Origin: an uncultured Fibrobacterota bacterium
GTDB taxonomy: Bacteria; Fibrobacterota; OXYB2-FULL-49-7; JAEUSG01
Direction of reading: 5' to 3'
Length of the DNA stretch: 64,000 nt
NCBI GenBank assembly: GCA_963831235.1
Contig: CAWHPS010000047.1
Coordinates: forward strand, 2,306 to 66,305
The notes below the pieces were generated by a model that made no database searches, had not been told where the DNA came from, and worked only from the letters and a program-made list of their open reading frames with translations. Position numbers and translations under genes: made by a program. Below, in pieces: positions 14,311 through 33,800 of this stretch (its first letter is position 1; every line of letters begins with the position of its first letter).

Positions 14311-14311
14311 G

Positions 14312-15982: not shown

Positions 15983-17116
15983 ATGATTTCAACGCCATGC
16001 ACTTTTATCGAATACTTCCAAGACATACCGGACCCACGCATAGAACGTAAAAAACTCCACAAACTTATCGACATAATTGTTGTCTTGGTATGTGCTACCC
16101 TTTGCGGCGCCAAGTCATTCGAGGAAGTCGAATTATTTGGCAACGAGCGAATAGAGTGGCTTAAACAGTTTCTTGAACTCAAAAACGGCATTCCATCGCA
16201 TGACACTTTTGGGCGGGCCAGTGCCTTGCTAAATCCGAAAGACTTTCAAGAATGCTTTATAAAATGGGTTGAGGCGTTACGATTGCCGAAACAAAATGAA
16301 GTAATTGCAGTCGATGGAAAAACCGCACGGCGTTCATTTGATACCAAGGCCGACCGAAATGCTATCCATGTCGTTAGTGCCTGGGCAGCAGAAAATAACT
16401 TGGTACTGGGGCAAATAAAGGTGAATGATAAATCCAACGAAATCACCGCTATCCCTGAATTGCTGAATATGCTCATGGTGAAAGGATGTATCGTCACTAT
16501 CGATGCAATGGGTTGTCAAAAAGCTATTGCCGACAATATTGTAACCAATGGCGCGGATTATGTTCTCGCCGTTAAAGAAAATCAACCGAGCCTGTATGAA
16601 CAAATCCGCAACCGCGTAGATACTGTCGTGGTGGATGGGTTGAAAGATGTGGCCCATGACACGTATTCAACAGAGGATAAGGGACATGGTCGCGAAGAGC
16701 ATCGTGAGTATCATGTTATCGATGATATTACCTGGCTAAAAAATAAGGAACAGTGGCGATCATTGTCTGCTATCGGTGCTGTTCACTCCATAAGGAAAAC
16801 AAAAAAAGCAGAGCAGACAGAAATACGGTATTATATTCTCAGTCGTAAAATGTCGGCAAAACAGTTTGGTCAGGCAGTACGCAGTCATTGGGGAATTGAA
16901 AACAAATTGCATTGGAATCTGGATGTGTCTTTTAGAGAGGATGACTGTCGCATTAGAAAATCAAATGCACCAACAAATATGAATGTAGTCCGGCATGTCG
17001 CTATAAATCTATTGAGACAGGAAACATCAATAAAAGCCAGTATCGTACGCAAACAATTAAAAGCAGCTTTGAGCACACAATATTTGGAGCGCATCCTTGG
17101 AATCGTTAAATTTTAA
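15983..17116 (+). CDS. ISAs1-family transposase
   Basis: DPRIERKKLHKLIDIIVVLVCATLCGAKSFEEVELFG and HWGIENKLHWNLDVSFREDDCR are hallmark ISAs1 (H-repeat) motifs. Confidence 0.9.
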   Translation: MISTPCTFIEYFQDIPDPRIERKKLHKLIDIIVVLVCATLCGAKSFEEVELFGNERIEWLKQFLELKNGIPSHDTFGRASALLNPKDFQECFIKWVEALRLPKQNEVIAVDGKTARRSFDTKADRNAIHVVSAWAAENNLVLGQIKVNDKSNEITAIPELLNMLMVKGCIVTIDAMGCQKAIADNIVTNGADYVLAVKENQPSLYEQIRNRVDTVVVDGLKDVAHDTYSTEDKGHGREEHREYHVIDDITWLKNKEQWRSLSAIGAVHSIRKTKKAEQTEIRYYILSRKMSAKQFGQAVRSHWGIENKLHWNLDVSFREDDCRIRKSNAPTNMNVVRHVAINLLRQETSIKASIVRKQLKAALSTQYLERILGIVKF

Positions 17117-17410
17117 TGCGATTGCCCTGTTACACGAGTAACATCGCCGCACTGATATTCAAAACGCAGGGTCTGTTCTACAATATCAATAAAATGTCTT
17201 AAAGAACTTTCCATGCCCCATCCCGATATTTTAAAACCAATTGAGTTATTAAGTGGGTTATTTTAAAAATATATGATTAATAGTAAGAAATGACATACTT
17301 TCAGTAAGTTTTGCCATACTAAACTTCTTTCCCTAATAATAAAAATAACTTATACTTATTAACAGATATTCAATTAATAGTAGGTTTTTACAAGGAATGA
17401 AGGAGGCATT

Positions 17411-19861
17411 ATGACGAAGATGCGAAACGAGTTCGACTATGCGGCGATCGTTGACCCGGAGGAAATGCGGGACGCCCGTCTGTATCTGGCGCCCATGCTG
17501 GAGACGGCGAGGGTCATCGCGGACACCCCTGGTGCAGGGCCTGAAATCGTCTGCGTGTCCCAAGGCTGGGGCACATTGCAGATCGGCCGCTCCGTGCACC
17601 ACAAAAAGACCCCTTTGTGTCTTGCGGGGAGGACGTTCGCGTCCGGGTTGGGAACCCATGCCGACAGCGAAATCCTGATTCGGCTTCCCGCCGGGGCTGG
17701 GCGATTAACGGGCCTGTGCGGCGTCAACGACAGCCTGGAGACGCGCCAGTTGACCGCCCATGCGCTGGTGTTTCGTATCGAGGTCGATGGTCAAGAGGTG
17801 TGGCGGAGCGGGCCCCAGGACGCCGGCACCGAGCCGGCGCGTGTCGATGCGCGGCTCGCCGGTTGCAAGCAGTTCACCTTGAAGGTCGAGGGGCCGAATA
17901 ATTATGGTCACGCAAATTGGGTCGATTTGAAAGCCACGTTGACCAACGGCAAGATCGTCGAAATTGGCAAGCCGCAAGCCGTTGACATCGGGTTCAGCTT
18001 CCGGTATGGCGGAAAACCGTCGGCGGGGTTTCTCGCGGCCTGGCGGCCGAAGAAACAGCGGTTGCCGGAGAAGGACGGCGTCGTTCTGCACCGGATTACC
18101 CGCACCGATCCGAAGACCGGGCTGGCGGTAATCTGCGAAATCAAGGAATACACACGGTTTCCGGTGGTGGAATGGGGCCTGCGCCTGAAGAACACCTCGA
18201 AGCGCAAGACGCCGCTCCTGGAGGACATCCGGTCTCTGGACACGGAACTGTGGCTCGGTCAGTTCCCATATCTGAACCACTGGAACGGCGACTACTGCGC
18301 GCAGGACGGCTACGAGCCGTTTCGGGTCTCGCTGGCGCATGAGGAGGAGTACCGGTTTGCGCCGGTGGGCGGCCGCCCGACCGATCGCGCCTGGCCGTAT
18401 TACAATCTCGAGTGCCCGAGCGCCAACTGCGGTCTGATCGTCGTGGTGGGTTGGTCCGGGCAATGGGCGTCTTGTTTTCGCGGACTCGACAATCACGCCG
18501 TCCACATTACCGCCGGCCAGGAGCTGACGCATTTCAAGCTTTTGCCGGGCGAGGAAGTGCGCACCCCGTTGTCGGTGCTGATGTTCTATCGCGGCGACCG
18601 GGTGCGCTCGCAGAACCTCTGGCGGCGGTGGATGCTGGCTCATAATCTGCCCCGGCCCGGCGGACGGCTGCCCGAGCCGATCCTGCCAGTGTACTGTGCA
18701 CAGGTGGGTACCGAAATGGCGGCGGAGACCGAGGAAACGCAGAAAGCCGGCATGGAACGCTACGTCGAGGAGGGGATCAAGCTCGATTACTGGTGGATGG
18801 ACGCGGGCTGGTACCCGTGCGATGGCCAGTGGTCCAAAACGGGCACGTGGGAGCCGGACTCGAAGCGCTTTCCACGCGGCCTGCGGGCCGTATGCGACCA
18901 CGCGCATGCCCGGGGCATGAAGACGCTGGTCTGGTTCGAGCCTGAGCGAGTGCATCCGGATACCTGGCTGTGGAAGGAGCGGCCCCAGTGGTTGCTCTCA
19001 TCCCAAAAGTCGAATTACCGGCTGCTCGACCTCGGCAACCCGGCAGCGCTGAAGTGGCTGATCAACCATGTGGTCCGGACGATCCGCGAGCAGGGGATCG
19101 ACCTGTACCGGCAGGATTTCAACTTCCAGCCGTTGCCGCACTGGCGCGCCAACGATGCGCCGGATCGGCAGGGGATCAGCGAGATCCGCCATGTCGAGGG
19201 GTATCTCGCCTATTGGACCGCGTTGCGTCAGCGGTTCCCCGGCATGCTGATCGACTCCTGCTCCAGCGGCGGGCGTCGCAACGACCTAGAAACCATGCGG
19301 CTTGCCGTGCCGTTCCACAAGACCGACTACAACTATGACGACCAGACGACCAAACAGGCGTTTCACCACACGCTGTCCTCATGGCTGCCGTATTACGGCG
19401 CGCTCTTGTTGGCGGAAGACATGGGGGATGTTTACGCGTTCCGCAGCTCGCTGGCCTCGATGACGTTGTTTGTCAACAACCTGCAGGGTGATGTGGACTG
19501 GCGCCAGTTGAAGCGCTTCACCGAGGAATGGCGGCGCATCACCGGCGCCGGGTATTTCTACGGCGACTACTATCCCCTGACCCCCTACAACCGCGACGAG
19601 ACCCAGTGGATCGCCTGGCAGTTTCACCGGCCGGATACCGGCAAGGGCCTGGTGCAGGCGTTCCGGCGCAAAGATAGCAAGGTTGTGTCAACCCGATTCC
19701 ATTTGCAGGGGCTGGAACTCGACGTGTCGTATGTCATAACGGACGTGGATGCACCGAAAAAAAGGATCACCCTGTCCGGCAAGGAACTGATGACTTCCGG
19801 CCTGATGATAGAGATGCGTCGGGCGCCACAGGCGGCGGTAATCCTGTACCAGAAGGCGTGA
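17411..19861 (+). CDS. GH36-type alpha-galactosidase with an N-terminal NPCBM-like carbohydrate-binding module
   Basis: DYWWMDAGWY, GMKTLVWFEPERV, YRQDFN and SCSSGGRRNDLE motifs. N-terminus has GLGTHADSEI...ANWVDLKATL. The CDS is conspicuously GC-rich and all other frames are open. Confidence 0.7.
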   Translation: MTKMRNEFDYAAIVDPEEMRDARLYLAPMLETARVIADTPGAGPEIVCVSQGWGTLQIGRSVHHKKTPLCLAGRTFASGLGTHADSEILIRLPAGAGRLTGLCGVNDSLETRQLTAHALVFRIEVDGQEVWRSGPQDAGTEPARVDARLAGCKQFTLKVEGPNNYGHANWVDLKATLTNGKIVEIGKPQAVDIGFSFRYGGKPSAGFLAAWRPKKQRLPEKDGVVLHRITRTDPKTGLAVICEIKEYTRFPVVEWGLRLKNTSKRKTPLLEDIRSLDTELWLGQFPYLNHWNGDYCAQDGYEPFRVSLAHEEEYRFAPVGGRPTDRAWPYYNLECPSANCGLIVVVGWSGQWASCFRGLDNHAVHITAGQELTHFKLLPGEEVRTPLSVLMFYRGDRVRSQNLWRRWMLAHNLPRPGGRLPEPILPVYCAQVGTEMAAETEETQKAGMERYVEEGIKLDYWWMDAGWYPCDGQWSKTGTWEPDSKRFPRGLRAVCDHAHARGMKTLVWFEPERVHPDTWLWKERPQWLLSSQKSNYRLLDLGNPAALKWLINHVVRTIREQGIDLYRQDFNFQPLPHWRANDAPDRQGISEIRHVEGYLAYWTALRQRFPGMLIDSCSSGGRRNDLETMRLAVPFHKTDYNYDDQTTKQAFHHTLSSWLPYYGALLLAEDMGDVYAFRSSLASMTLFVNNLQGDVDWRQLKRFTEEWRRITGAGYFYGDYYPLTPYNRDETQWIAWQFHRPDTGKGLVQAFRRKDSKVVSTRFHLQGLELDVSYVITDVDAPKKRITLSGKELMTSGLMIEMRRAPQAAVILYQKA

Positions 19862-19888
19862 ATAGAAGCAGAGAATGTCGTTTGTCGC

Positions 19889-20017
19889 GCCATAACGGCG
19901 GGTTGTGTTGCGCGCGCTGGCGAGCGTCCAGCGAGCTTTTATATCAAAGGCAACAAAATCCATAATTAATATTTGTTGCCCTCTTTGCGCGCGTCAATAC
20001 CAACCCGATAGTTGGGC
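19889..20017 (-). repeat. integron attC site 3
   Basis: GCCATAAC R' box, standard L arms, GTTGGGC R'' box. Confidence 0.8.
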
Positions 20018-20141
20018 TTGCACCGAGGCTCATGTCCACCGCCCACTTCTCCGGCAATTTCAGCATCTCAGTTAAGTTGCAGAAAATACTTGAAGTATGG
20101 TTATTATTATGGTATTTTATATGGCGAAAGGTTAAAGATAG

Positions 20142-20432
20142 ATGAACCATCCCGATTTCGACTGGGATTCTAATAAAAGTGCAAACAATCTTGAAAAACA
20201 TGGGATTGATTTCAGTTTTGCTCAAATTGCGTTTAAAGATACCCAAAGAGTAATAGTGCTTGATGTAAAACATAGCACTGATCAAGAAAAGCGTTACTTT
20301 TGCTATGGAATGATTGGCGATAAGGTAGCAACTGTGCGTTTTACCTGGAGAACAGATAAAATAAGAATATTTGGCGCTGGGTTTTGGCGAGAAGGGAGAA
20401 AAAAGTATTATGAAGAAAATGGAATACACTAA
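20142..20432 (+). CDS. brnT: BrnT (DUF497) toxin
   Basis: FDWDSNKSANNLEKHGIDFSFAQIAF ... KIRIFGAGFWREGRKKY. Confidence 0.75.
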   Translation: MNHPDFDWDSNKSANNLEKHGIDFSFAQIAFKDTQRVIVLDVKHSTDQEKRYFCYGMIGDKVATVRFTWRTDKIRIFGAGFWREGRKKYYEENGIH

Positions 20433-20658
20433 TGCTCCGGCTGAAGTAGCGAAAGCAATTGAAAGTGGTGTTGTTATCAAGGACTTTTTGCCTTCACCAG
20501 ACAAATTAGTTTTTAAAGAAGATAACATAAAAGTCACTTTAGAATTAAGTAAAAGAAGCGTCACTCTTTTTAAGAAATATGCCCAAAAGAGTGGCGTGAA
20601 ATATCAGCGCATGATGCGTAATCTGATCGATCAATACGCGAGTAAAACGCTTGTTTAG
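20410..20658 (+). CDS. brnA: BrnA-like antitoxin
   Basis: ATG at 20410 (MKKMEYTN) overlaps the brnT end. The C-terminus is RHH-like (SVTLFKKYAQKSGVKYQRMMRNLIDQY). Confidence 0.6.
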   Translation: MKKMEYTNAPAEVAKAIESGVVIKDFLPSPDKLVFKEDNIKVTLELSKRSVTLFKKYAQKSGVKYQRMMRNLIDQYASKTLV

Positions 20659-20900
20659 CTCTATCATCATTTTTATTTAATAAAGCACATTACGCATTGT
20701 GCTTTTCAGTTAAGCGATCCCAGACGCCGGTCTTTGTGGTATATTTTAGCAATCGAATACGCATGCCTTAAATCCGGTGCCGTTACGTTTTGTGCCTTTT
20801 TAGTTAAGTTTATCTTGACACCGGATTTCGTCCCTATCTCTTCATTTCGAACACCGAATCAATTATGGTTCACTTGTTGAACTGCTCTGCTATTTCCGGC

Positions 20901-21917
20901 ACCGGGTGGGTCGGGGGCCTCTCGGCCCCGTTCCCCCCTCAGAACCGTACGTGACAGTTTCCCGTCATACGGCTCAAGCATTCATAAGGCAACACCTTGC
21001 TTTTGTGCCACCCAGACGTAACCTTGTGGCCAACTCGCTTACCATACGGATGGTTATTGCACTTAGCGCGTATAATCCGTACAGCGTGAATCCGGTTACG
21101 GCCTTTGCGATACGCACCAGCAGGCCCTAAGTCGCTGTCGACGGGAGGGGGCCCGATTTGCACATAAGTCGCGTCAGTTTCAGACGCCTTTTTGGTGTCG
21201 CCACCATGCAAACCACCATAGCGTTCCCTCCTGGAAGGGTTCTCCTGATTATCTCGCAGTAGAACACCAGCATAGACCGTCAGCCTCCCATACGGGTGAG
21301 ATAATGTTCCACCGTCGTCAATCGGCGGTCAATCTCTATCTCCCTCATTACAAGAGAGCATTCGCTTCTGTCAGCTTCTCACCCCATACCTCCATCAACC
21401 CACCTTGCGGCCAGTCTGCTCTTCCAGTAGCAAAGAGCGTAGCTATGAGGTTACTTCGTTCCGTGTTTTGACCCATTGGATGCTTTAGGTTTGCGTAGTC
21501 CGCCGGTGGGGCTATTATCCGTGCCGGGACTAGTTGGAGAGTCCCCAGCCACCCACATCCGCCTTGCGACGGACACAGGCCTGTCAATTCCTTTGGCCTG
21601 CTACCTTCGTGACGACGGTTAACCGCATTCAGTTAGTTTAACCATGGCATCCTATTCTATGCCCGACTTTGCCGGAATGGAATTATCCGGAGAGACCCAG
21701 CCTCGCGGCTTGGCCCCTGCACTTTTGAATGTGCTGAGCACTTTGTCCGGGAGGCTTCATACCCACCGTAACAGGATTACGGCACGCATGCTCCCGTAGA
21801 ATCTCGATGACGGAACATCGGGTCTGACAGGTTACCATCATGACGAGTGCGATATTCTCGTCTTATCAGCCAATGGCAGCCTTCAGACAGTCAAAGAACA
21901 CAGTTGACGAATCGCGA
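20901..21917 (-). mobile_element. ORF-less group II intron-like element, copy 3 (1017 nt)
   Basis: No differences from copy 2 were detected. Domain V at 20942-20975. Flanked by the leader ...TTTCCGGC and by attC-4. Confidence 0.7.
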
Positions 21918-22041
21918 GCAACGGCGGGTTGTGTTGCGCGCGCTGCGAGCTTCCAGCGAGCTTTATATTAAAGGCAACAAAATCTATAATCTATTTTTGT
22001 TGCCATCTTTGCGCGCGTCAATACCAACCCGATAGTTGGGG
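21918..22041 (-). repeat. integron attC site 4 (R' split by intron copy 3)
   Basis: GCAACGGCGGGTTGTGTTGCGCGCGC ... GCGCGCGTCAATACCAACCCGATAGTTGGGG. Confidence 0.8.
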
Positions 22042-22376
22042 CTGCACCGCGAATTCGCCCGCGTACCAAGCCTCCGCGGTGTCAGCATTTCCGGCGCATT
22101 ACGTCTTGTGTCTTTTTAGTTAAGTTGATCTTGCGCCGGTCTTTTTTTTATGGACCTGTACCTATTCCAAAGAATCCTGCATTTTGAATCATTTCCTTGG
22201 ACCATCCAAATAAAACAGTCTGTATTGCCGGACTCCTCTGCCAAATTTGGTTTCAAATAGTGTACATAATATCGGGTGCATTCCCGATTTGTTGGTGTTT
22301 TTTAAGCCAAGTATTGACATTGACCCTTTTTTTTAGTATATTTCCGATAGCAATTATAATGCAATCGGAAAGGAGC

Positions 22377-22727
22377 ATGCCCATGTCCGCCAATAAACGT
22401 CCTGTCCAACAGGTTAAGGACGCACTTTATCGACTTGGCCCTTTGTTGCCTGGCAGCATCAGCACCCAATGGAATGTCTGCGGAAAAGCGGGTTGCCGTT
22501 GCAAAGACCCCGAAAAGCCTCGTAAACACGGCCCTTATTACCAGCTCAGCTTTACCGTTGGCGGGAAGAGCTCCTCAATGTTCATTAAGGCCGCCGATAT
22601 ATCCGCTGTACGAGAATGTATAAAGCGCTATAGACAATTCAAAAAACTCAACAACACCCTGTTAAACGCCTATTTGCTATGGGCGCGTAACGGAGGATTA
22701 CAGCAATCAAAGGAGAAAAAGCTATGA
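22377..22727 (+). CDS. IS accessory zinc-ribbon protein (orfA)
   Basis: ATG at 22377 with GGAAAGGAG upstream. WNVCGKAGCRCKDPEKPRKHGPYYQLSF motif. ATGA overlap with the next ORF. Confidence 0.6.
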   Translation: MPMSANKRPVQQVKDALYRLGPLLPGSISTQWNVCGKAGCRCKDPEKPRKHGPYYQLSFTVGGKSSSMFIKAADISAVRECIKRYRQFKKLNNTLLNAYLLWARNGGLQQSKEKKL

Positions 22728-24138
22728 GCGGGAATATGTCTGAACAGGAGAGAGAAGAACTCAAACTTCGCATGATGGAACAAATAGAGGGCTTGTTGAA
22801 CAAGATTGCCGACACCGGCGTCGTACGCAACGCGGAACAATTGCGAAAAGCCGAACTGGAGATTGCCGCAATTACCGATGGAATGGCCGGGGATGTCATC
22901 AAAACTGTCATCAAACACTCTCTGCAAGACCAGTACCTTATTACCCAGGGACAGTTATTGGCAAAGGGGGCTACCGTACGCATGAAAAACCACGGCAAGC
23001 GTGATGTCGTGATACAGCCCTATCGAGGCGATCCTTTTACTGTAGAAACGACCTATTACTACAAGGCGGGGCAGGTTCACCGGCCTGCAGCAAAAAAAAA
23101 GGGTTCTTTCCCGAATTAACACTGCTTGGCGTCCTCGCCCACCATACGCCGGTGGCCGCAAGTGAGATAACGCAATTGGCTACGGCGTTATGCTCACTCA
23201 AGGAAGCCGTTGTGATACTCCAGGAACGAGGACGCAGCATTGATATCAAGACCCTGCGCCGTCTGACCTATCATTTCGCCGATACAGCCCGTTCAGTACA
23301 GCAAACCATCCCCCTCACTCTTTCCAATACCGTTGCGGGCAAACGATGTGCTGTTTCCGTGGATGGTGGACGCATCCGAATTCGTACGCCCAAGCAGGGT
23401 AAAAAGACCTCGAAAAAGCGAAGTCGTTTCAAGGCAGATTGGCGTGAACCCAAACTGCTCCATATCTGGCTTCTGGAGGGTGATGGGACTATCTGTCGTG
23501 ATTTTGCGCCGTGGATTGACGGCACGCTGAATGGTCCCGATGCCGTCTTCATGCTCCTTGGATATTACCTGACAGCACTCAATATCACCAGCGCCGATCA
23601 GGTCCTTTTTATTGCTGACGGAGCACCTTGGATATGGGCCCGGGTTCCGCTGCTCATAAAAGAACTCGGGCTTGACCCGGCAAAGGTCTACCAAATTGTT
23701 GATTTCTATCATGCCGTGGAGCACCTCAACGCCGTGGCAAAGCTGTGCAAGCGTTGGCCGGAAAAACGACGCCGTCAATGGGTAAGCCGCTTAAAGGGTT
23801 ATCTGTGGGTGGGAAAGAATGAGGAGGTTGTGGAGGCAGTACGCGAAATCTCTCGGGGTCGAAATGGCAAACTGATAACGCGTGAAAGAAATTATTTCGA
23901 AGGTAATATTCAGAGAATGCAATACGCATTGGCCCGGAAAAACAATCTCCCCATTGGCAGCGGCCCAATGGAAAGCGCAATCAGGCGAGTGGTGAATCTG
24001 CGCATGAAAGGAAATGGCATCTTTTGGCTGGAACAGAATGCGGAAGCTATGATCATGCTACGCTCATACTACAAAGCGGGACGCTGGAACGATCTCTTTC
24101 TCATGGCAACCACCGCATCGGCAGGAGATCACTCATAA
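22724..24138 (+). CDS. IS transposase in two frames (22724-23119 and 23005-24138), joined by a -1 shift at A9
   Basis: ADGAPWIWARV and VDFYHAVEHLN blocks (UPF0236/ISKra4-like). The A9 tract at 23092-23100 lies in the 115-nt overlap. The -1 product reads ...AAKKKGFFPELTLLGV... Confidence 0.65.
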
Positions 24139-24835
24139 TGTCACCCACAAAACGGGAATGCACCCCATAATATCCAACCCTAAAGCATCGTAACCCAAGA
24201 ATGGCCTCACAGAATCCTCCATCCGCGCTAAACTTGAAATCTTTCCATTTAACCTCTACAATTGACGACACGGCTATTGAGTCTATATTTTCTTGCTCTA
24301 TTTTCCACTTTTCAAAAGTTTGAGGAAAACCAAAGCCTGCAGCACTACCGTCTTTGCTCTTGCATGATATAGATACCTGTGAAAGAATAGAATAAGCATC
24401 TTTATACTTATGCACTGCAATGTTTTGAAAATAATTCCGAATTGTTTGAAAATATATACTGTCAGAAGGATTGCTTTGGATTGAAGCGGCCAAAAACAGG
24501 AGCGCAAGAATCGATTTGGTAATTGTTTTCATTTTGGCCTCTTTTTCTTAAACTCTCGATTTTGTTTTACTTGCGTTGCCTTCCACAAAGGATTTTGTCT
24601 TTATTCCGGCGCCGTTACGATTTGTGCCTTTTCAGTTAAGTTTATCTTGGCGCCGGTTGCATTTCTGGTATTTTTATAGCCCTCGAATACACATGCCTTT
24701 AATCCGGTGCCGTTACGCCAGTTGCTTTTCAGTTACATTTATCTTGGCACCGGATTTCGTCCTCATTTCTTCATTCCACTTAATTGTGCTCTGCACCAAT
24801 TACAGTTCTGCTTGTTGGGCTGCTCCGCTTTTGCC

Positions 24836-24963
24836 GGCACAACGGCGGGTTGTGTTGCGCGCGCCGCGAGCGTCAAGCGAGCTTTCAAATAAAAGGCAAC
24901 AAAGTCTATAATATATTTTTGTTGCCCTCTTTGCGCGCGTCAATACCAACCCGTTAGTTGGGC
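24836..24963 (-). repeat. integron attC site 5
   Basis: GGCACAAC R' box, L arms, GTTGGGC R'' box. Confidence 0.8.
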
Positions 24964-24964
24964 T

Positions 24965-25004
24965 GCACTGCGGTTTGCCACCCTGCTCAGCTTCCCGCAG
25001 TGTC
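24965..25004 (-). repeat. H module: conserved hairpin abutting R'' (representative copy)
   Basis: GCACTGCGG ... CCGCAGTG(T)C stem around a ~21-nt variable loop. A similar hairpin follows most attC sites. Confidence 0.6.
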
Positions 25005-25043
25005 GGCATTTTGGCTATCTATTTGCCTTTCATTTTGCATTTC

Positions 25044-25078
25044 GACGCCGCCCAGCTTGCGTTACCTTCCCGCGAAGG
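25044..25078 (-). repeat. N module (representative copy)
   Basis: GACGCCGCCCAGCTTGCGTTACCTTCCCGCGAAGG with an internal CCTTC/GAAGG mini-hairpin. Recurs singly or in tandem, for example at 40246-40400. Confidence 0.55.
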
Positions 25079-25092
25079 ATTTTGCTTTTCTT

Positions 25093-25142
25093 CCGGCGCC
25101 ATTACGCGTTGTGTTTTTCAGTTAAGTGTTTCAAGGCGCCGG
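25093..25142 (-). repeat. M module, subtype a (representative copy)
   Basis: CCGGCGCC-ATTACGCGTTGTGTTTTTCAGTTAAGTGTTTCAA-GGCGCCGG. An 8-bp stem closes a conserved ~34-nt loop. Confidence 0.65.
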
Positions 25143-25185
25143 TCTTCATGGTATATTTTAGCCCTCGAATAAGTATGCCTTTAAT
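25143..25185. promoter_or_regulatory. P-box: promoter-like spacer between the two M modules
   Basis: The plus strand has TGGTATATT (extended -10 like). The minus strand has TAAAAT (25155-25160) with TTAAAG 18 nt upstream. Confidence 0.35.
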
Positions 25186-25236
25186 CCGGTGCCGTTACGT
25201 TTTGTGCCTTTTTAGTTACGTTTATCTTGGCACCGG
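25186..25236 (-). repeat. M module, subtype b (representative copy)
   Basis: CCGGTGCC-GTTACGTTTTGTGCCTTTTTAGTTACGTTTATCTT-GGCACCGG. The internal GTGCC (25204-25208) can compete with the 5' stem for GGCAC. Confidence 0.65.
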
Positions 25237-25318
25237 ATTTCGTCCTTATCCATTCATTCAACTTAATTGCGCTCTGCGTCAATTACAGTTCTGCTTGTTG
25301 GGCTGCTCTGCTTTTGCC
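25237..25318 (-). repeat. Box A: conserved cassette 5' leader segment adjoining R'
   Basis: Present next to R' in most cassettes, in two sequence variants. Contains a second RYYYAAC/GTTRRRY-like pair and a TAATTG/CAATTA hairpin. Confidence 0.55.
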
Positions 25319-25448
25319 GGCACAACGGCGGGTTGTGTTGCGCGCGCTTTGCGAGCGACAAGCGAGCTTTTATATCAAAGGCAACAAAATCTATAATCAA
25401 TATTTGTTGCCCTCTTTGCGCGCGTCAATACCAACCCGATAGTTGGGC
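25319..25448 (-). repeat. integron attC site 6
   Basis: GGCACAAC ... GTTGGGC with standard L arms. Confidence 0.8.
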
Positions 25449-25802
25449 CTACACCGAGGCTCATTGCAAACACCGAGCTCTCCGACTCTGTCCTTTTTTC
25501 CTTCGACGCCGCCCATCTGTTAACACATTCACATAAGGCGATACTGCATTTCCCTCTATCCTGCAACACTACACTCTTACGTTACATGCTGACAAAGGAT
25601 TTTTATATCTTATTTCAAAACGCACCGCCTCCCTTTCGGCTGTACCAATGTTTACGCTTACCTGACAGAATCGAATCCTTCTAACTTTTCTTCAATATTT
25701 TCCGAAAATATTACGTCTTGTGTTTTTCAGTTATATGATCCAAGCGCCGGATTTAGTCCTTACGTCCCGCTCCGTCCTTGGCTCAAACCGATACTATGGA
25801 GC

Positions 25803-26261
25803 CTATGCATTTCCATTGCAGTTTATTTCAATAAATCTATTGTTTTTTATATCGAAAATTATTCCACAAAAAGAATCTCCTCCATCCATTACCCAAATTG
25901 GTTTCTTTTCCCAATTTTTAAATTCATTATGTTTCGCAATCAAATTGATGTAAACATAGTTTTCGCTACCAATTTTAAATCCGATATATTGCCTTCTGTA
26001 ATATCCAATTCCATTATCATTTATTTTGGCAACTTTAAGTGAATCAAAATATCTCGGTAGAATTGCTTCTATTTTGATACAAATAGAATCAGCCAATTTA
26101 TCAATTTCTATTGATTTTGATTTAAGGAATGAGTGATTTCTTTGATAAATCGCATTCTTACAATCATTTCCTGCTAATACTACAAATTCCTTTTCGTTTT
26201 TAGCGAAGCAATAAAATGCGATAACTGAAGCAAAGATAAAAATGCCTATTTTTGTTTTCAT
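25803..26261 (-). CDS. hypothetical secreted protein (cassette gene)
   Basis: 152-aa ORF with signal peptide MKTKIGIFIFASVIAFYCFA. No recognisable family. Confidence 0.55.
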   Translation of the reverse strand: MKTKIGIFIFASVIAFYCFAKNEKEFVVLAGNDCKNAIYQRNHSFLKSKSIEIDKLADSICIKIEAILPRYFDSLKVAKINDNGIGYYRRQYIGFKIGSENYVYINLIAKHNEFKNWEKKPIWVMDGGDSFCGIIFDIKNNRFIEINCNGNA

Positions 26262-26307
26262 AATTTATTCCTTTTGCTCTCTTATCATTAAACTTAATTG
26301 CGATTCA

Positions 26308-26333
26308 CGTCAATACCAACCCGATAGTTGGGG
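26308..26333 (-). repeat. decayed attC (site 7): only L''/R'' retained, fused to a Box A fragment
   Basis: AACTTAATTGCG (Box A) is followed by CGTCAATACCAACCCGATAGTTGGGG. R' and L' are missing. Confidence 0.6.
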
Positions 26334-26501
26334 CTGCACCGCGGTTTGCCACCCTGCTCAGCTTCCCGCGGTGTCGGCATCTCCGGCGCCTTTACGCTTT
26401 GTGCTTTTTAGTTAAGTTTATCTTGGCGCCGGTCTTCTCTTTTACATTTTGACGTCGCCCAGCTTGCGTTGCCTTCCCGCAATGAAACATCTGCCTTGTG
26501 T

Positions 26502-26921
26502 TCATATAGTCTTTATAAACCTTTTCCTGTATTCCCCATAACCATGGCTTTCGTAAAATTGATGCGCATCTTTTCGACGATAAGCGCTTGTCACTTCAAA
26601 CTTGCAGCAATTCTTTTGTTTTCCCCATTTCTCAACAAATGATAGCAGTTTTGATGCGATTCCCTTTCTTCGATGGCTTTTGCTTACAATTAACGAAGTG
26701 ATTCTACCCGTGCATCCAATTTGATGCATTAATGGCGTAAGGCAAAAACTTATAAAGCCAATGGCTTTTTGTTTTTCTGTAATTACGGCTGCAACTCCTC
26801 TTTTTCCATTATAGTTTAAAAGGTTCTTTTTAATGTCGTTGGATGAGATATTATAACCTAGTTCATACATCAATTGCGAAATGTCTTTTGAAAAAGAAAT
26901 AGGATTCTGAATTATCTTCAT
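26502..26921 (-). CDS. GNAT-family N-acetyltransferase (cassette gene)
   Basis: RITSLIVSKSHRRKGIASKLLSFVEKW acetyl-CoA binding motif, plus AHQFYESHGY. Confidence 0.75.
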   Translation of the reverse strand: MKIIQNPISFSKDISQLMYELGYNISSNDIKKNLLNYNGKRGVAAVITEKQKAIGFISFCLTPLMHQIGCTGRITSLIVSKSHRRKGIASKLLSFVEKWGKQKNCCKFEVTSAYRRKDAHQFYESHGYGEYRKRFIKTI

Positions 26922-27310
26922 TATGTTTTCCTTTCTACTATTGTTGAAATAGCAGTTTCTTTCGAACCAAGTAATGTGCTTTTCTTCTGTCTTTTGACGT
27001 CGACCAGCTTACGTTACCTTTCCACAAGGCGACATTGTTTTCTTTTTATATTTCTTACGTTGCCTTCGACAAAGGATTTTGTCTTTTTTCCGAATTCATT
27101 ACACCTTGTGCATTTTCAGTTAAGTGATCTTATATCTGCATTTCTGGTATTTTCATAGCCCGCGAATACGCATGCCTTAAATCCGGCGCATTACGTATTG
27201 TGCTTTTCAGTTACGTGATCCCAGCGCCGGATTTCGTGATCCCTCCTCATTAAACTTAATTGTGCTCTGCATCAATTATGGTTCACTTGTTGAGCTGCTC
27301 TGCCATTTCA

Positions 27311-27438
27311 GGCCCAACGGCGGGTTGTGTTGCGCGCGCTGCGAGCGTCCAGCGAGCTTTTATATCAAAGGCAACAAAATCCATGATCAATATTTGTTGC
27401 CCTCTTTGCGCGCGTCAATACCAACCCGATAGTTGGGG
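27311..27438 (-). repeat. integron attC site 8
   Basis: GGCCCAAC ... GTTGGGG. Confidence 0.8.
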
Positions 27439-27510
27439 CTGCACCGCTGCCTTGCCCCACGCCTAGCCTCCTGCGGTGTCGGCACTTGTTTATATTCATT
27501 TCTTAAATAG

Positions 27511-28605
27511 CTACTTATAAAAAGGAGTTACACCATAATATACTTTTCCATGGTCTTTATCTTTAGGTGCAGCAATTTTAAATTCTTCCCAAACATTTTT
27601 CAAAGGGAACGCTAGTACGGCCAGGCTACCTTCCTCATTCCATACAGTTGTGCTCCAACCACCACTAAGTCCGTCAAGCATAAACTGAGGCTCCTCCATT
27701 TTTGTCAGACATTTTGATATAAGATGCTTTAACGAATCGACATTACCATAATTTGTCCTAATAAGTTCATAAGTATAAAAGATTTCGCCTAAAACTACTT
27801 TTGAACAAAAGTGTGTTCCAAATTGTTTTTGAAAAACAGCCGAGTCTTTTTGTAGTGAATCTGCACATGACGAGAAAGGCGCTAGCTCTTTTATTAAATA
27901 TTCTTTATCACGATAAACCATATAGGTGAAATACAAGATTTCACCCGGTTGCCTTTTGATGGTTTGATCTAACATAGAATATAAATCAAATCTGTTTTGT
28001 GAAAACTTAATTGCCGCAGCCTCATCTGAATCATTTGCAATTATAACGTAGCCATATTCAAATTTATTTATTATTACGCTCTGGCATACGCCTCCTTTTC
28101 CAAATGGAGATAAACATTCACCTGAACCAACATAATAATAAATACTATTTAAAATAGTTGAATCAAAAGAGAAGTATAATCCATAATTACGTGCAAGAGA
28201 GTCTGAACAGATTTCATACACAGGCGGCAGAATAGTAGCTTTCCAGAATAGCATTAAATTATTCGAATTTGTTATCTCGAATGGAAGCTGCAATTTACCA
28301 TACATTCTATAGTAACCTGGCATCAATGGAATTGAAATTGAATCCCATATAACAGGTACCAATGAAGTAGAGTTGTTATCAAAAAGCACCTTCACTTCAC
28401 CTGGAAGCTGATAACTTTCACCGTATGTAAGCGTAATAGATGTATCCGTAGCAACGTTTTGTACTTCTACTATACTCTTGGCAGAAGGCATAATGCTTTG
28501 ACCGGTTGGATTATTTTGATTTTTTGTACAAGAAAACACAAATAATACAACAAGCAAACAAATAAGTCTTCCGGCCAATTCATTTTTTGCTGATTCTAAT
28601 AACAT
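27511..28605 (-). CDS. hypothetical lipoprotein (cassette gene)
   Basis: 364-aa ORF with a lipobox-like LFVFSC near the N-terminus. No recognisable family. Confidence 0.55.
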   Translation of the reverse strand: MLLESAKNELAGRLICLLVVLFVFSCTKNQNNPTGQSIMPSAKSIVEVQNVATDTSITLTYGESYQLPGEVKVLFDNNSTSLVPVIWDSISIPLMPGYYRMYGKLQLPFEITNSNNLMLFWKATILPPVYEICSDSLARNYGLYFSFDSTILNSIYYYVGSGECLSPFGKGGVCQSVIINKFEYGYVIIANDSDEAAAIKFSQNRFDLYSMLDQTIKRQPGEILYFTYMVYRDKEYLIKELAPFSSCADSLQKDSAVFQKQFGTHFCSKVVLGEIFYTYELIRTNYGNVDSLKHLISKCLTKMEEPQFMLDGLSGGWSTTVWNEEGSLAVLAFPLKNVWEEFKIAAPKDKDHGKVYYGVTPFYK

Positions 28606-28715
28606 TAAAAAGCCTTTCCTTTAAAAGTTAAACTACTGATTCAGCGACGATTTTGTTTTGTATCTTTCAATTGCATTTGTCTTACGTTACATTCCCCCGA
28701 AGGATTTTATCTTTG

Positions 28716-28845
28716 CATCCAACGGCGGGTTGTGTTGCGCGCGCCTTGCTCGCGTCAAGCGAGCTTTTATATAAAAGGCAACAAAGTCCATAATCAATAT
28801 TTGTTGCCATCTTTGCGCGCGTCAATACCAACCCGATAGTTGGGC
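28716..28845 (-). repeat. integron attC site 9
   Basis: CATCCAAC ... GTTGGGC. Identical to attC-16 apart from the part of the R' box lying beyond the crossover (CATCCAA versus GGCCCAA). Confidence 0.8.
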
Positions 28846-29283
28846 CTACACCGAGGCTCATTGCAAACACCCACCTCTCCGGCAATGTACTTTTTTACTT
28901 CGACGCCGCCATTCTGTTAACACATCCACATAAGGCGACACCACAATTCCAGACATCCTGCAACACCGCTTACTTTTACACGGTGAAGCTCATTTACTCA
29001 CAAGAGAATTTCATTATTTTATCCGCACTTTCAACCCACTGAGCTGTTCTTCCAAATACCTTCAACTCAATCTTTAGCACTCTATCAGTTTCAGTTCAGC
29101 AAATTGGCATACATTTGCGTTTCTGGTATATTTTAGCAATCGAAGAAGCATGCCTTTAATCCGGTGCCGTTACGACGAGTGTTTTTCAGTTACGTTTATC
29201 TTGGCACCGGATTTCGTCCCAATCTCTTCATTCCGAACACCGAATCAATTATGGTTCATTTGTTGGACTGCTCCGCTTTTTCC

Positions 29284-29411
29284 GGCCCAACGGCGGGTTG
29301 TATTGCGCGCGCTGCGAGCGTCCAGCGAGCTTTTATATTAAAGGCAACAAAATCCATGATCAATATTTGTTGCCCTCTTTGCGCGCGTCAATACCAACCC
29401 GATAGTTGGGC
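29284..29411 (-). repeat. integron attC site 10
   Basis: GGCCCAAC ... GTTGGGC. Confidence 0.8.
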
Positions 29412-29736
29412 TCACACCGAGGCTCATTCTCACCACCAAGCTTTCCAGCAATCTTTACGCTTTGTGCTTTTTAGTTAAGTGATCTTTTTCCGGAATAATT
29501 TCTTCATTATCTTTTGCTTACGTTGTCTACTTACAAAGGATTTTGTCTTTTTCCGAATTCATTACACCTTGTGCATTTTTAGTTAAGTGATCTTAATATC
29601 TGCATTTCTGGTATTTTCATAGCCCGCGAATACGCATGCCTTAAATCCGGCGCATTACGTATTGTGCTTTTCAGTTACGTAATCCCAGCGCCGGATTTCG
29701 TGATCCCTCCTCATTAAACTTAATTGTGCTATTTTA

Positions 29737-29758
29737 GGCCCTGACGCATGTTAGGGCC
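29737..29758. terminator. GC-rich hairpin downstream of the 142-aa cassette ORF
   Basis: GGCCCT-N10-AGGGCC. There is a T-rich run on the plus-strand side only, so termination on the minus strand is uncertain. Confidence 0.3.
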
Positions 29759-29797
29759 GCTTTTCTTTCGTTTCCAGCCAGATAATTTATTACGCGC

Positions 29798-30226
29798 TTA
29801 TAAGATTGCCTTTGCTACAAGCGCTATAAAGTCATGACCGGATTCAAATTTGCCGCTTACCGCCAATATGCCGCGCTTACTCATACGAGAAATAGGATAT
29901 CCTTTATGTCTTGCAATAATCGTAGCATAATTTTCCTTCAATCCATCACGCATAAATGGTTCATCAAAATTAATTCGATATAAATTATCCGAAAAATGTG
30001 TAATTGTTCCTACCAGCTCCATTGGAGGGTTGGGATCCATATTTTCAAATTCAAAAAGCCTTACTTTGGTTCTGTTGATTTTATCAGGGTTTTCTTTTGA
30101 CCATATTATTCCGTTTACTTTTATAAATACATTATCGAAAAATAGTATGACGAGAATTGCGATAATAATGCCGATAATGACAAGATAATTCATACTTTTG
30201 ACGAGATAATAAGTATTAATAAACAT
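29798..30226 (-). CDS. hypothetical membrane-anchored protein (cassette gene)
   Basis: 142-aa ORF with one N-terminal TM helix (YLVIIGIIIAILVILFF). An alternative start at 30193 is possible. Confidence 0.5.
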   Translation of the reverse strand: MFINTYYLVKSMNYLVIIGIIIAILVILFFDNVFIKVNGIIWSKENPDKINRTKVRLFEFENMDPNPPMELVGTITHFSDNLYRINFDEPFMRDGLKENYATIIARHKGYPISRMSKRGILAVSGKFESGHDFIALVAKAIL

Positions 30227-30489
30227 TCTAAAAAAAGTCGCATTATTTTTCCTCCTTTTTGATTTTCCGGCACCATTACGAATTGTGCTTTTTAGTTACG
30301 TCTACTTGGCGCCGGTCTTTGTGGTATATTTTAGCAATCGAAGACGCATGCCTTAAATCCGGTGCCGTTACGACGGGTGTTTTTCAGTTACGTTTATCTT
30401 GGCACCGGATTTCGTCCTTATCTCTTCATTCCACTTAATTGTGCTCTGCATCAATTACAGTACGCAAGTTGGGCGGCAGTGCCATGTCC

Positions 30490-30617
30490 GGCCCAACGGC
30501 GGGTTGTGTTGCGCGCGCTGCTCGCATCAAGCGAGCATTCAAATAAAAGGCAACAAAGTCCATAATATAAATTTGTTGCCCTCTTTGCGCGCGTCAATAC
30601 CAACCCGATAGTTGGGC
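30490..30617 (-). repeat. integron attC site 11
   Basis: GGCCCAAC ... GTTGGGC. Confidence 0.8.
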
Positions 30618-31130
30618 TTACACCGAGGCTCATGTCCACCACCAAGCTCTCCGGCAACGTCAGCTTTTTTCTTTCTACGCTGCCAATATTTTGACACACT
30701 CTCACAAGACCACACCAAATTTCCAGTTATCCTGCAACACCGAACTCTTACGTTACCTTCCAGCAGAGTTTTTTATCTAACATTCCCCAGCACACCAACT
30801 CCCTTTCAGCGGCACCAAGACACTTGTTCCGCTTACCTTTAGGCAGTGCAGCCCATTTACGAACCAGCGCCTTTCATTTCTTTTTTGTCGCACTTTCAGA
30901 CCACAGCGCCACTTTTCCAAACCTCTTCAACTCAGCCTCTACAATCCATCAGCTTTAGTTCCGCCAATTGGACTGCTCTTTTTTATCAATTGTCAAGAAC
31001 CTTATTCTGTTTATTTTGTCAGCAACACATCTGCGAGTTGAATGGCAATTCTTCTTCAAGCAATTAATTCGGCTCAATTTATTTCCTACCAGCCACGCTT
31101 CCGATAGTTGGATTTTACTTCTTAGTTATT

Positions 31131-31261
31131 TGCCCAACGGCGGGTTGTGTTGCGCGCGCTTTGCGAGCGACAAGCGAGCAATCTATTATAAAGGCAACAA
31201 AATCCATAATCAATTTTTGTTGCCATCTTTGCGCGCGTCAATACCAACCCGATAGTTGGGA
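31131..31261 (-). repeat. integron attC site 12
   Basis: TGCCCAAC ... GTTGGGA. Confidence 0.75.
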
Positions 31262-31328
31262 CTGCATCGCGGTTTTGCCACAGTACCAAGCTATCCGCGG
31301 TGTCAGCATTTTTCTTATATCTCTCATT

Positions 31329-32345
31329 TTATTTAAAATATGCTGGTGCTGAACTCCAAAATATTTTGTCTGTTTCAAAAGGATGAAAACCAATCTTTAA
31401 CGGTTGACCTACATGAATATTTTTCTTAGGATTTACAAACCTAATAGTAATCACATCGGAAATGCCTTGAGGGGGCAAAATAACCTTAAGAGCATCAAAC
31501 GATTTCTCAATGCAACCTTCGATATGGTAGAAAATATTTCCATCCAGAACATCTTCATTGTCACAAACCCAATTACCTCGAAAGTCAAAAACACTTGGTT
31601 CTATTTTAAAGGTAGTCACATTCTTGCTATTTCCAAAATTAGGCATGCGTTCCGGTGGCAAACCTTCAAATCTTATGGCTTGAAACCTGTTTGTTAAATT
31701 CTTAATTTTAACATTTAAATAGCTGCCCTCACTTCTATTTTCAAAGCTATCTGATACTAAGATAAACTTAATCGAAGAATCACTTAATCTATCTTCTTCC
31801 TGTCCATTTATGAACCATCGCCTAATGGAACCTTGCCGTTTTCCATTGACAATCGTATCAACTGAATAAATATTACCATTTTCATAGTAACATTTACGTA
31901 CTCCTGACAGCTTATCAAAATTAAACGAGTCACGTTGAATCAGATTACCAAAACCATCAAATTTAAGCCGCTCTCCATGACGCAATCCTAGTTCTATATT
32001 TTCTAATCCGATTATGGTGTCTCCCTTCCAAATAACATTGGTCCCTTTCCATGGGATACTTGAATTAGGTGTATTAAATTTCCAATAACATGCGGATATT
32101 TTTATACCAAAGGAATCATAACAAGCCCATATTCCCGTCTTATAACTATTTAATAAATAGCCCTCATACTTAGGATTCCCGTTTTTATAATACTCTTTAG
32201 ACAAGACGACATTTCCATGAAGCATTGATGTATCAGGATTAATGAGATTAATTTGGGTGCTTACATTTATTAGCTGTTTATAATTCGATAAACATGTTGC
32301 AGAATAAGTCTGGCAAATGGCAATTACAACTAATAATATTTTCAT
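31329..32345 (-). CDS. secreted MORN-repeat (YwqK-like) protein (cassette gene)
   Basis: Signal peptide, plus repeated YKNGNPKYEGY / YYENGNIYSV / NGKRQG motifs. Confidence 0.5.
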   Translation of the reverse strand: MKILLVVIAICQTYSATCLSNYKQLINVSTQINLINPDTSMLHGNVVLSKEYYKNGNPKYEGYLLNSYKTGIWACYDSFGIKISACYWKFNTPNSSIPWKGTNVIWKGDTIIGLENIELGLRHGERLKFDGFGNLIQRDSFNFDKLSGVRKCYYENGNIYSVDTIVNGKRQGSIRRWFINGQEEDRLSDSSIKFILVSDSFENRSEGSYLNVKIKNLTNRFQAIRFEGLPPERMPNFGNSKNVTTFKIEPSVFDFRGNWVCDNEDVLDGNIFYHIEGCIEKSFDALKVILPPQGISDVITIRFVNPKKNIHVGQPLKIGFHPFETDKIFWSSAPAYFK

Positions 32346-32556
32346 ACATTGCTCCTGATTTCTTATTGACTTCTCTTCTGATTCCCGTGTCTTGCGTTAG
32401 CTTCCCACAAAGGATTTTGCCTTTAATCCGGCGCATTACGTGTCGTGTTTTTCAGTTACGTGATCCCAGCGCCGGATTTCGTCCTTATTCCTTCATTAAA
32501 CTTAATTGTGCTCTGCATTAATTACAGTTCTCTTGTTGGGCTGCACTTATTTTCCC

Positions 32557-32684
32557 GGCCCAACGGCGGGTTGTGTTGCGCGCGCCTGCGAGCGTCCAGC
32601 GAGCTTTCAAATCAAAGGCAACAAAATCTATAATCTATTTTTGTTGCCCTCCCAGCGCGCGTCAATACCAACCCGTAGTTGGGG
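32557..32684 (-). repeat. integron attC site 13
   Basis: GGCCCAAC ... GTTGGGG. Confidence 0.8.
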
Positions 32685-32801
32685 CTGCACCGCGAATTCG
32701 CCCACCTGCCCTACCCCCGCGGTGTCAGCGCTTTTATTCATGCCTCTATATCTCTTGTTTTGTATAGATAGCTTCATAAAGATATTTTAACTAAAGACAA
32801 C

Positions 32802-33335
32802 TCATTGCTTTAAATAATTCCCTTGCTTAAATTCAGTAGATTTTCCTTTTGGAATTGATAGTGAAACCCATTCTTTCCCTTTGCACTGTTTGGCGATAAT
32901 TACGATTTGTCCTATATGATATGAACAATGTGATATTTGGCGATTAAGTGCCTGAACAAGTGAATGTGGCTCCTTTAAAATTATAACTGGCCGCGTAAAG
33001 TCATTTTCGGTAATTTTGCTAAGTCCTTCCTCAAGATACAAGAAGCCCTCGTTATAAAGTTCTATGATTTTCTCTTTTTCCAATTGTTCTTCTTCAAATT
33101 CACGGTCTCTATTCCTATTTGGTTTTTCGCCGTCTTCTGTAAACAAATTGACCCATCTTGATTTCATGTTTCCATTTAGATGCTTAACAATAATGGAAAT
33201 AGAATTAGCGTTGTTAATGTTTGAATTTAATTCCTCCATTGACAATGACTGAATAGATTGAATTCCAAGATTTCTATAGCGTTTAAATTCGGATCGAACA
33301 CTTTCAAGATAGTTTAGATTAAATTGCTTTTTCAT
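32802..33335 (-). CDS. DinB-family (DUF1572-like) protein (cassette gene)
   Basis: VKHLNGNMKSRW and HCSYHIGQIVIIAK motifs. The ATG at 33335 (MKKQFN) is preferred because the longer track ORF runs into attC remnant DNA. Confidence 0.6.
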   Translation of the reverse strand: MKKQFNLNYLESVRSEFKRYRNLGIQSIQSLSMEELNSNINNANSISIIVKHLNGNMKSRWVNLFTEDGEKPNRNRDREFEEEQLEKEKIIELYNEGFLYLEEGLSKITENDFTRPVIILKEPHSLVQALNRQISHCSYHIGQIVIIAKQCKGKEWVSLSIPKGKSTEFKQGNYLKQ

Positions 33336-33372
33336 ATTGCCTTTCGCGTGCTTGTCTTTTTGCTTTTGGCCA

Positions 33373-33389
33373 CCAACCCGTAGTTGGGG
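33373..33389 (-). repeat. decayed attC (site 14): R'' end only
   Basis: CCAACCCGTAGTTGGGG followed by a normal H hairpin. No L' or R' partner. Confidence 0.5.
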
Positions 33390-33797: not shown

Positions 33798-33800
33798 GTG

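Follow-up and report, generated by a model that had tools for sequence, protein, structure and literature searches.

Why would an integron keep, in several nearly identical copies, a gene cassette that holds no gene, and what could the sequence inside it be good for? This question is raised by a stretch of 64,000 nt from an uncultured Fibrobacterota bacterium (assembly GCA_963831235.1, contig CAWHPS010000047.1, positions 2,306–66,305 of the forward strand), referred to as the window in the following, which contains a sedentary chromosomal integron with a large array. A cassette without an open reading frame (ORF), 483 bp long from crossover to crossover, lies on its minus strand at 24843..25325 and again at 37980..38462 (97.1% identical to the first copy) and 44940..45422 (99.2% identical to the first copy). 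An earlier note on this DNA had pointed to near-identical units at these three intervals, and they do align over 483 columns without any gap, showing pairwise identities of 96.3–99.2%. In the 150–300 bp beyond the proposed ends the identity is only 48–91% and the neighbours differ from copy to copy; the same sharp drop is seen around two other duplicates, namely 28723–29290/35345–35912 (100% identical) and the 1066-bp pair 34279–35344/40649–41714 (99.8%). The proposed crossover-to-crossover ends are therefore true cassette boundaries, and they coincide with G|TT in the R' box of attC. The 483-bp unit is a genuine, discrete and non-coding gene cassette that has been duplicated independently, and judged from its sequence it is very probably a mobile empty cassette.

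The array spans 11287..47401 on the minus strand and comprises at least 23 cassettes and about 40 copies of a hairpin termed M, with every module in one orientation. The integron array of the earlier note is borne out by the presence of intI, attI and 23 attC sites, and its ORF-less cassette made only of recurring modules is supported as well. The integrase gene intI (47537..48841, plus strand) encodes a product with Pfam matches and a score of 359 bits against the NCBIfam model TIGR02249 ‘integron integrase’ (cut-off 265). Its homologues are named integron integrase; the closest one is only 57% identical and is encoded on a contig without an array, and a 50%-identical IntI came with no usable array DNA. 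An N-terminal extension of about 120 aa (window 47537–47900) precedes the model-matched residues 122–433, and the length that includes this extension is common to many homologues (430–480 aa). Directly left of intI we located the attI region (47402..47450, minus strand) with a perfect 15-bp inverted repeat (CCAATTGGAATTGAT tag ATCAATTCCAATTGG, window 47408–47440, 3 nt off the crossover) followed by CCG|TTGTGCC, the first crossover being at or near 47402. Each cassette terminates in a 121-bp attC running from R'' (GCCCAAC) to R' (GTTGKGC) with pairing L stems and an identity to the majority base of 0.92 across the array, and its unpaired extra bases belong to the minus-strand R''/L'' arm, which agrees with the minus strand being the top (coding) strand. 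The attC half-site was found 23 times, always co-oriented, and the M core 20 times, with 0.00 matches expected for each, and thus these repeat families are not due to chance.

The features of a sedentary integron are all present, with chromosomal flanks, more than 20 cassettes, homogeneous attC sites and toxin-antitoxin cassettes. The housekeeping genes after intI include purB and, judging from a syntenic relative (L011), rho; no integron is present at the syntenic purB loci of the relatives. The purB product is closest to proteins from metagenome-assembled genomes of named Fibrobacterota and Raymondbacteria (70–74% identity), and one cassette protein carries a type IX secretion system (T9SS) sorting domain. 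The two toxin-antitoxin cassettes, a kind typical of sedentary integrons, lie on the minus strand at 11610–12300 and 14312–15036 and are of the types HepT-like RNase with MntA-like nucleotidyltransferase and PIN-domain toxin preceded by a small ORF.

Read on the cassette strand (all coordinates on the minus strand), the unit begins with hairpin 1 of Box A (unit positions 1–30, window 25296..25325), in which TTGTGC of R' finds its pairing partner further downstream in GCCCAAC, a sequence resembling an R'' box. Hairpin 2 of Box A follows (38–64, 25262..25288) with the composition TAATTG-A-[variable inner stem]-CAATTA including a bulged A, and its arms look like those of the attI palindrome. Behind a purine-rich linker (65–84) comes the hairpin M-b (85–146, 25180..25241), whose stem of 8–10 bp, CCGGTGCC/GGCACCGG, closes a 35-nt loop with two GTAAC boxes. 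The P-box (147–178, 25148..25179) shows a −10-like TAAAAT in sense direction and an extended −10-like TGGTATATT on the plus strand, and is followed by the second M hairpin, M-a (179–236, 25090..25147), with the stem CCGGCGCC/GGCGCCGG. The N module (237–313, 25013..25089) is composed of a small hairpin CCTTCGCGGGAAGG, then GTAACGCAAGC and then TGGGCGGCGTCGAAATGC. Finally, the hairpin H (314–362, 24964..25012) stands at a constant distance upstream of the R'' box of the attC (363–483, 24843..24963; 121 bp), which shows R'' GCCCAAC, the L''/L' stems, two inner hairpins and an R' ending in CCGCCG|TT.

A gene could not be found in this unit, as there is no ATG-initiated ORF of at least 30 aa on the cassette strand and none of at least 60 aa on the other strand. 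Hidden small proteins were considered since an ATG precedes several M hairpins, and were rejected because frames and peptides are inconsistent across copies and lineages. Altogether 9 of the 23 cassettes lack a credible gene. In line with the earlier note, the 606-bp cassette at 40043..40648 is the same unit with three N modules in tandem (61-nt period), and four ORF-less cassettes share a second spacer family: the 568-bp cassette at 28723..29290 with a Box A of type III and one M, its 100% identical copy at 35345..35912, the 674-bp cassette at 45423..46096 consisting of the leader and this spacer, and the 641-bp cassette at 30497..31137 without Box A or M. The note had missed a ninth ORF-less cassette at 38463..39001 (539 bp), which has no Box A and a 51-aa ORF as its only one; all of these lie on the minus strand. 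The second spacer family consists of N copies that have diverged and M copies that lack the stem, and is an older paralogue of the same N/M material. Its interpretation as an ORF remnant was dropped, as the tblastn matches of the 206-aa ORF at 19944–20564 represent read-through into attC and this ORF is spurious.

What the unit consists of can be seen in the cassettes that do carry genes. Box A and M form a leader at 19 of the 24 cassette starts, as the first 150–270 nt, also in the first cassette beside attI and just after two group II introns, and most cassettes end with 170–300 nt of modules in the order (N), (M), H, attC. In the coding cassettes the module-built leaders measure 117–530 nt and the trailers 190–500 nt, in accordance with the earlier observation that the modules surround the protein-coding cassettes. 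The five starts without Box A are found at 40043, 39002, 31138, 28723 and 19896, and here the similarity breaks off directly behind GTTGG, which bears out the position of the crossover. Drawn as a circle, the block is a contiguous stretch of about 480 bp consisting of N, H, attC, Box A hairpin 1, hairpin 2, M-b, P-box, M-a and N, in the middle of which lies the IntI crossover. The 483-bp unit represents this lineage-specific cassette-boundary block by itself, and coding cassettes contain, in addition to the block, an ORF that has its own Shine-Dalgarno sequence. Shine-Dalgarno sites are clear on the cassette ORFs, which are positioned in or beside N with 15–60 nt of unique upstream sequence bearing the ribosome-binding site. 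Copies of N or M often stand on both sides of the cassette ORF: a full N lies on either side of the GNAT gene (26502–26921) and of a 59-aa ORF (33801–33980), and the DUF3465 gene is preceded by the 5' half of N and followed by a diverged N copy. The N-flanked ORFs are found in the cassettes 25326–27317, 32564–34278 and 40649–41714, and the copy number of the modules varies from one to four for M and from none to three for N. Truncated attC sites, composed of H and the R''/L'' half only, occur at 26308–26380 and 33372–33439 and fuse two cassettes each (GNAT with a 152-aa ORF, and the 59-aa ORF with a DinB/DUF1572 gene), the leader of the second gene being short and classical.

From this architecture two routes to the empty unit can be proposed. 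The ORF might have been lost by recombination between flanking direct N or M repeats, or an ORF-free progenitor might have fused by N × N recombination to N-led cassettes such as 27318–28722. In either case IntI would then copy the empty unit to new positions in the array, which would account for the sharp ends of the three copies and for their differing neighbours. A more radical version, which we regard as very improbable, would regard the ~480-bp block as an enlarged attC scaffold or ‘blank cassette’ that becomes joined to genes, with ORFs entering at N, with the GC-clamped M and N hairpins and their GTAAC boxes as recognition sites for a dedicated putative protein and with the sense-oriented ORF-less group II introns in the R' core possibly being involved. 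If this holds, the array would capture integron cassettes in the course of their formation, which has not been observed before.

Base pairing is retained in several of the modules. In an alignment of 48 distinct M sequences, in which 10 pairs were tested with slid partners as control, 89% of the cells are paired compared to 23–42% with slid partners, and the 8-bp core stem is paired nearly everywhere. Double changes convert C:G into U:A in 14 of the 48 sequences and G:C into A:U in two, and the boxes TAAC and GTAA of the loop show no or almost no variation, the diverged relative described below included. In Box A hairpin 2 the outer stem and the bulged A are invariant, and the inner stem comes in five sequences and lengths, all of which pair (CGC/GCG, TGC/GCA, TGCGG/CCGCA, CGCACG/CGTGCG and CGCGG/CCGCG). 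To look for relatives we searched 185,579 reference genomes for the M-core pattern, and the single match there is due to chance and falls within a coding sequence. Plasmid, phage and viral-contig collections gave no genuine module copy either, the results being empty or chance matches. Exact look-ups of two cassette proteins found no match. Seven metagenome contigs matched, five of them genuinely. Three of these (L002, L004 and L005) are 93–96% identical to the unit and contain ORF-less units, which are ordered differently and also occur in tandem. The other two, L003 and L008, are about 73–78% identical and represent a diverged relative with the order H, attC, Box A hairpin 1, hairpin 2, then four tandem M hairpins (in L008) and then an ORF. 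The comparison covers two lineages only, and the short metagenome contigs may in part be mis-assembled across repeats. In a cross-lineage alignment of 10 sequences including L008 and L003 (about 25% diverged), pairs of H, the attC L boxes, hairpin 2 and M are kept by double changes, amounting to 12 of the 72 pairs. The compensatory changes and the persistence in a relative that is about 25% diverged indicate that base pairing is under selection for several modules, and the predicted pairing kept in H, both Box A hairpins and M argues against pure debris.

Paired stems around a recombination site might also work as single-stranded DNA (ssDNA). The hairpins would then be accessory arms of an enlarged attC, tuning attC folding, IntI binding or the frequency of excision and insertion. 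The block is indeed contiguous around the crossover, H abuts R'' at a fixed distance, and the arms of hairpin 1 are the TTGGGC of R' and a perfect GCCCAAC, so that the R' core would be sequestered. The arms of hairpin 2 (AATTGA/CAATT) echo the attI palindrome GGAATTGAT/ATCAATTCC, the plus strand of M reads GTTAAGT or GTTACGT and is core-site-like, and the bottom strand of M and N has GTTRRRY-like boxes. Moreover, attC as a known ssDNA element covaries like the other hairpins, and the elements closest to attC are those retained in the diverged relative. However, attI contains the palindrome only and neither M-like nor GTTACG repeats, for which reason we also rejected the M boxes as copies of attI accessory integrase sites. 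Five starts in the array lack Box A and have evidently recombined, M is located up to 300 nt from attC and in trailers too, and hairpin 1 is too short (7 bp) to compete with the long stem of attC. We think that a role as ssDNA arms is unlikely.

Signals for transcription were searched by matches to the sigma-70 consensus, which may not be the rules of this host. The best match is TTCAAA-17-TATAAT (10/12) on the plus strand in the central attC of many copies, and the extended −10 of the P-box plus strand (TGGTATATT) is the other top antisense match. Copies of the former were noted on the plus strand at 24884–24912, 32606–32634, 34320–34348, 38021–38049 and 40690–40718. At the equivalent attC position L008 has TTGTCA-16-CATAAT (4135–4108, minus strand of that contig) as the top match of the locus, and the attC match of L003 is poor. 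The cassette strand is rich in A and G, and 35 of the 37 terminator-like sites (hairpin plus T-run) between 24000 and 42000 are on the plus strand, antisense to the cassettes. Compared with shuffled sequences both strands fold better, with z values of −4.2 for sense and −6.4 for antisense. A Bacteroidetes-type promoter for the P-box was set aside, as the cassette genes use clear Shine-Dalgarno sites and the host is Fibrobacterota-like. The promoter and terminator matches are leads and not findings, since repeated copies and a T-rich strand inflate them.

These antisense matches lead to a further explanation, in which promoter-like sites in attC and the P-box would drive short structured RNAs ending at the T-runs behind H, N or M, to serve as small RNAs or antisense regulators, with the first cassette feeding intI. 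It would account for the strand of the top promoter matches and of the terminator-like sites, for the conserved position of the attC match in L008 and for the more stable folding of the plus strand, and antisense promoter activity is documented for ORF-less Treponema cassettes (PMC8876359). Nevertheless, the promoters are consensus matches only, the attC match in L003 is poor, the terminator-like matches are inflated by the T-rich strand, a 35-nt M loop is too large for a classical terminator, no small RNA family of Rfam matches, and the wobble counts do not favour the plus strand. Such antisense units appear quite improbable to us. The wobble counts, 9 G-T versus 5 C-A mismatches in the M stem, were also tried as a guide to the functional strand and are uninformative, and the same applies to RNA versus DNA. 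An RNA payload, which was among the candidates of the earlier note, is accordingly not supported by the Rfam search or by the M stem.

Our leading guess is that the modules constitute a portable cis-acting leader for expression or insulation. Hairpins kept by compensatory change flank every attC, and together with promoter-like stretches of the P-box and the central attC they might give each cassette its own signals for transcription, insulation or stability. Such signals would serve an array of 36 kb that lies beyond the reach of a single cassette promoter (Pc). Sense transcripts, which would be purine-rich and almost free of terminator-like hairpins, might read through and be bracketed by hairpins, and antisense transcripts would meet the hairpin-plus-T-run sites. 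The invariant GTAAC boxes presented in the M and N loops would imply a putative sequence-specific binding partner. Taken as a whole, an origin of the empty unit along the routes given above combined with a portable cis-acting leader and trailer function is the best explanation we can offer, although we favour it only tentatively; the functional part, that the modules act as portable cis-acting leader and trailer, deserves a shade less confidence still.

Several observations weigh against this function. Conservation of the block is even at about 85–90%, with stems, loops and linkers at 0.75–0.92 to the majority base, and only attC (0.92) stands out; such near-uniform conservation is expected from recent duplication or gene conversion alone. 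Much of the block similarity is concerted evolution or recent duplication, and the independent pairing events are few because the copies are related by duplication. The pairing of hairpin 2 is lost in Box A type III, decayed and stem-less M copies are present, and the mismatches of the M stem (9 G-T as wobble, 5 C-A) allow no strand call. The top promoter matches are antisense and do not point toward the ORFs, and the sense candidates TTGACG-17-AAAAAT in attC and TTAAAG-18-TAAAAT in the P-box are weak. The excess of terminator-like sites on the plus strand is partly a matter of T-rich composition and repeated copies. No family of Rfam 15 matches the modules in the array at the gathering threshold, and the sole match at E ≤ 1 is implausible (22 bits) and outside the 483-bp unit. 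Neither the P-box nor N was seen in the leader of the diverged relative, and the five starts without Box A show that the leader is dispensable for recombination and gene carriage.

Part of this evidence fits modules without any function, that is, a repeat family of the lineage which would owe its spread within the array to duplicated cassettes, unequal crossing-over and gene conversion, with the ORF-less cassettes being deletion products that IntI can move. The near-uniform conservation, the variable numbers of M (one to four) and N (none to three, in tandem with a 61-nt period) and the patchy copy differences that match variants of other cassettes would all be in line with it. The same is true for the decayed versions (second spacer family and Box A type III), for the 9 of 23 cassettes that are empty and for the confinement of the modules to two related lineages (no real match in 185,579 genomes, genuine copies in five of the seven metagenome contigs). 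This proposal has also been made for the non-coding cassettes of Vibrio (PMC1382264). Against it, the stems of M, hairpin 2 and H remain paired despite substitutions and changes in stem length, the stem and the loop boxes of M are practically unchanged in the relative whose block is only about 73–78% identical overall, and the approximately 40 M copies keep one orientation and a fixed order. Functionless repeats are a somewhat unlikely explanation in our opinion. As for the selected function that the earlier note had suggested for the payload, the compensatory pairing in H, both Box A hairpins and M, retained in the relative, speaks for it, and the uniform conservation and the decayed and copy-number-variable modules speak against it.

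Two aspects of integrons are poorly understood, namely how cassettes are built and how genes far from Pc in very large arrays are expressed or silenced. With a shared structured leader of 150–270 nt, an empty unit that probably moves by itself and ORFs between repeats, this array is a compact system for both questions. Should the modules be inert, the array still documents strong concerted evolution in an integron of a little-sampled phylum.

Other elements are also present in the region. Three copies of ORF-less group II introns of about 1015 nt are present on the minus strand (20903–21917, 12824–13838 and 7690–11286). Two of them are 100% identical, and the insertion is inside the attC R' core on the strand of the cassette ORFs; both intact copies are followed by a Box A type III leader. 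Group IIC-attC introns have been described to insert into the attC bottom strand, opposite to the cassettes, and to encode a reverse transcriptase (PMC3001079). We did not assign the introns to this class, as their Rfam matches are on the minus strand, that of the cassette ORFs, and about 1015 nt contain no ORF of reverse-transcriptase size. The third copy is interrupted by an 859-bp unit repeated three times with 99–100% identity (8166–10183, plus strand), whose plus-strand ORFs of 138 and 183 aa have no Pfam match. Between two attC sites, 6 kb at 13966–19895 with 61% G+C compared to about 40–45% in the array carry genes for an IS4-like DDE transposase (15983–17116, plus strand) and a GH36/melibiase-like protein (17411–19861, plus strand), and this stretch looks like a foreign insertion into the array. 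In the cassette 21922–24842 an ORF of 143 aa follows the cassette strand, and three more run the opposite way: DUF6788 (22197–22727) as well as 22724–23119 and 23152–24138, the latter two without Pfam match. To the left of the array a MULE/Mutator-like transposase element (651 aa) is found twice on the minus strand, at 1881–3836 and 4597–6552, 2716 bp apart.

How does this array compare with systems already described? In the chromosomal arrays of Vibrio, non-coding cassettes that are highly paralogous and restricted to a lineage reach up to 45 copies per family, and both selfish and promoter or regulatory hypotheses have been raised for them (Boucher et al. 2006, PMC1382264). As in our case, they are ORF-less, bounded by attC, highly conserved, present in many near-identical copies per array and restricted to a narrow lineage. 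Unlike in Vibrio, the modules of the Fibrobacterota-like host also form the 5' leader of 19 of the 24 cassette starts and many trailers and include hairpins with compensatory changes, and there is no sequence similarity between the two. ORF-less cassettes are likewise known from oral Treponema, as promoter cassettes that are often antisense, and from Xanthomonas, as cassettes for small RNAs (PMC8876359), where they have been proposed or shown to supply promoters or regulatory RNAs. A modular multi-hairpin build shared with coding cassettes is not described there, and in contrast to the measured activity of the Treponema promoter cassettes the promoter-like sites discussed here are consensus matches, the best of which are antisense. 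The premise of the earlier note that only attC is conserved between cassettes is thus inaccurate in view of the Vibrio paralogues (PMC1382264), and the novelty it had assigned to multi-copy non-coding cassettes and to their candidate functions was too strong, as both have been described (PMC1382264, PMC8876359).

In being long (121 bp) and about 92% alike within one array, the attC sites resemble the VCR and VXR repeats (PMC8352920, PMC13638679), from which they differ in that the conserved unit reaches about 50 nt further upstream (H) and 150–270 nt downstream (Box A, M, P, M and N). The DUF1874 motif (Weinberg et al. 2017, PMC5737381) is a multi-stem motif in consecutive intergenic regions that is suspected to be a complex attC-like ssDNA element; here, unlike there, a canonical attC occurs together with an integrase, the additional stems stand on either side of the attC and no Rfam family matches. 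Short hairpins with GC stems in tens of non-coding copies are also reminiscent of repetitive extragenic palindromes (REP), bacterial interspersed mosaic elements (BIME) and miniature inverted-repeat transposable elements (MITE). An element of the MITE or REP type was nevertheless rejected since all copies are co-oriented, in fixed order and confined to 11287–47400, that is to the integron, with no target duplications, and since neither the rest of the window nor public genomes contain a copy. In the literature we searched, no array has been reported whose coding cassettes mostly share a hairpin-rich leader and trailer built like an empty cassette. A multi-copy ORF-less cassette is already known from other integrons, and the structured leader and trailer that it shares with the coding cassettes are the new part.

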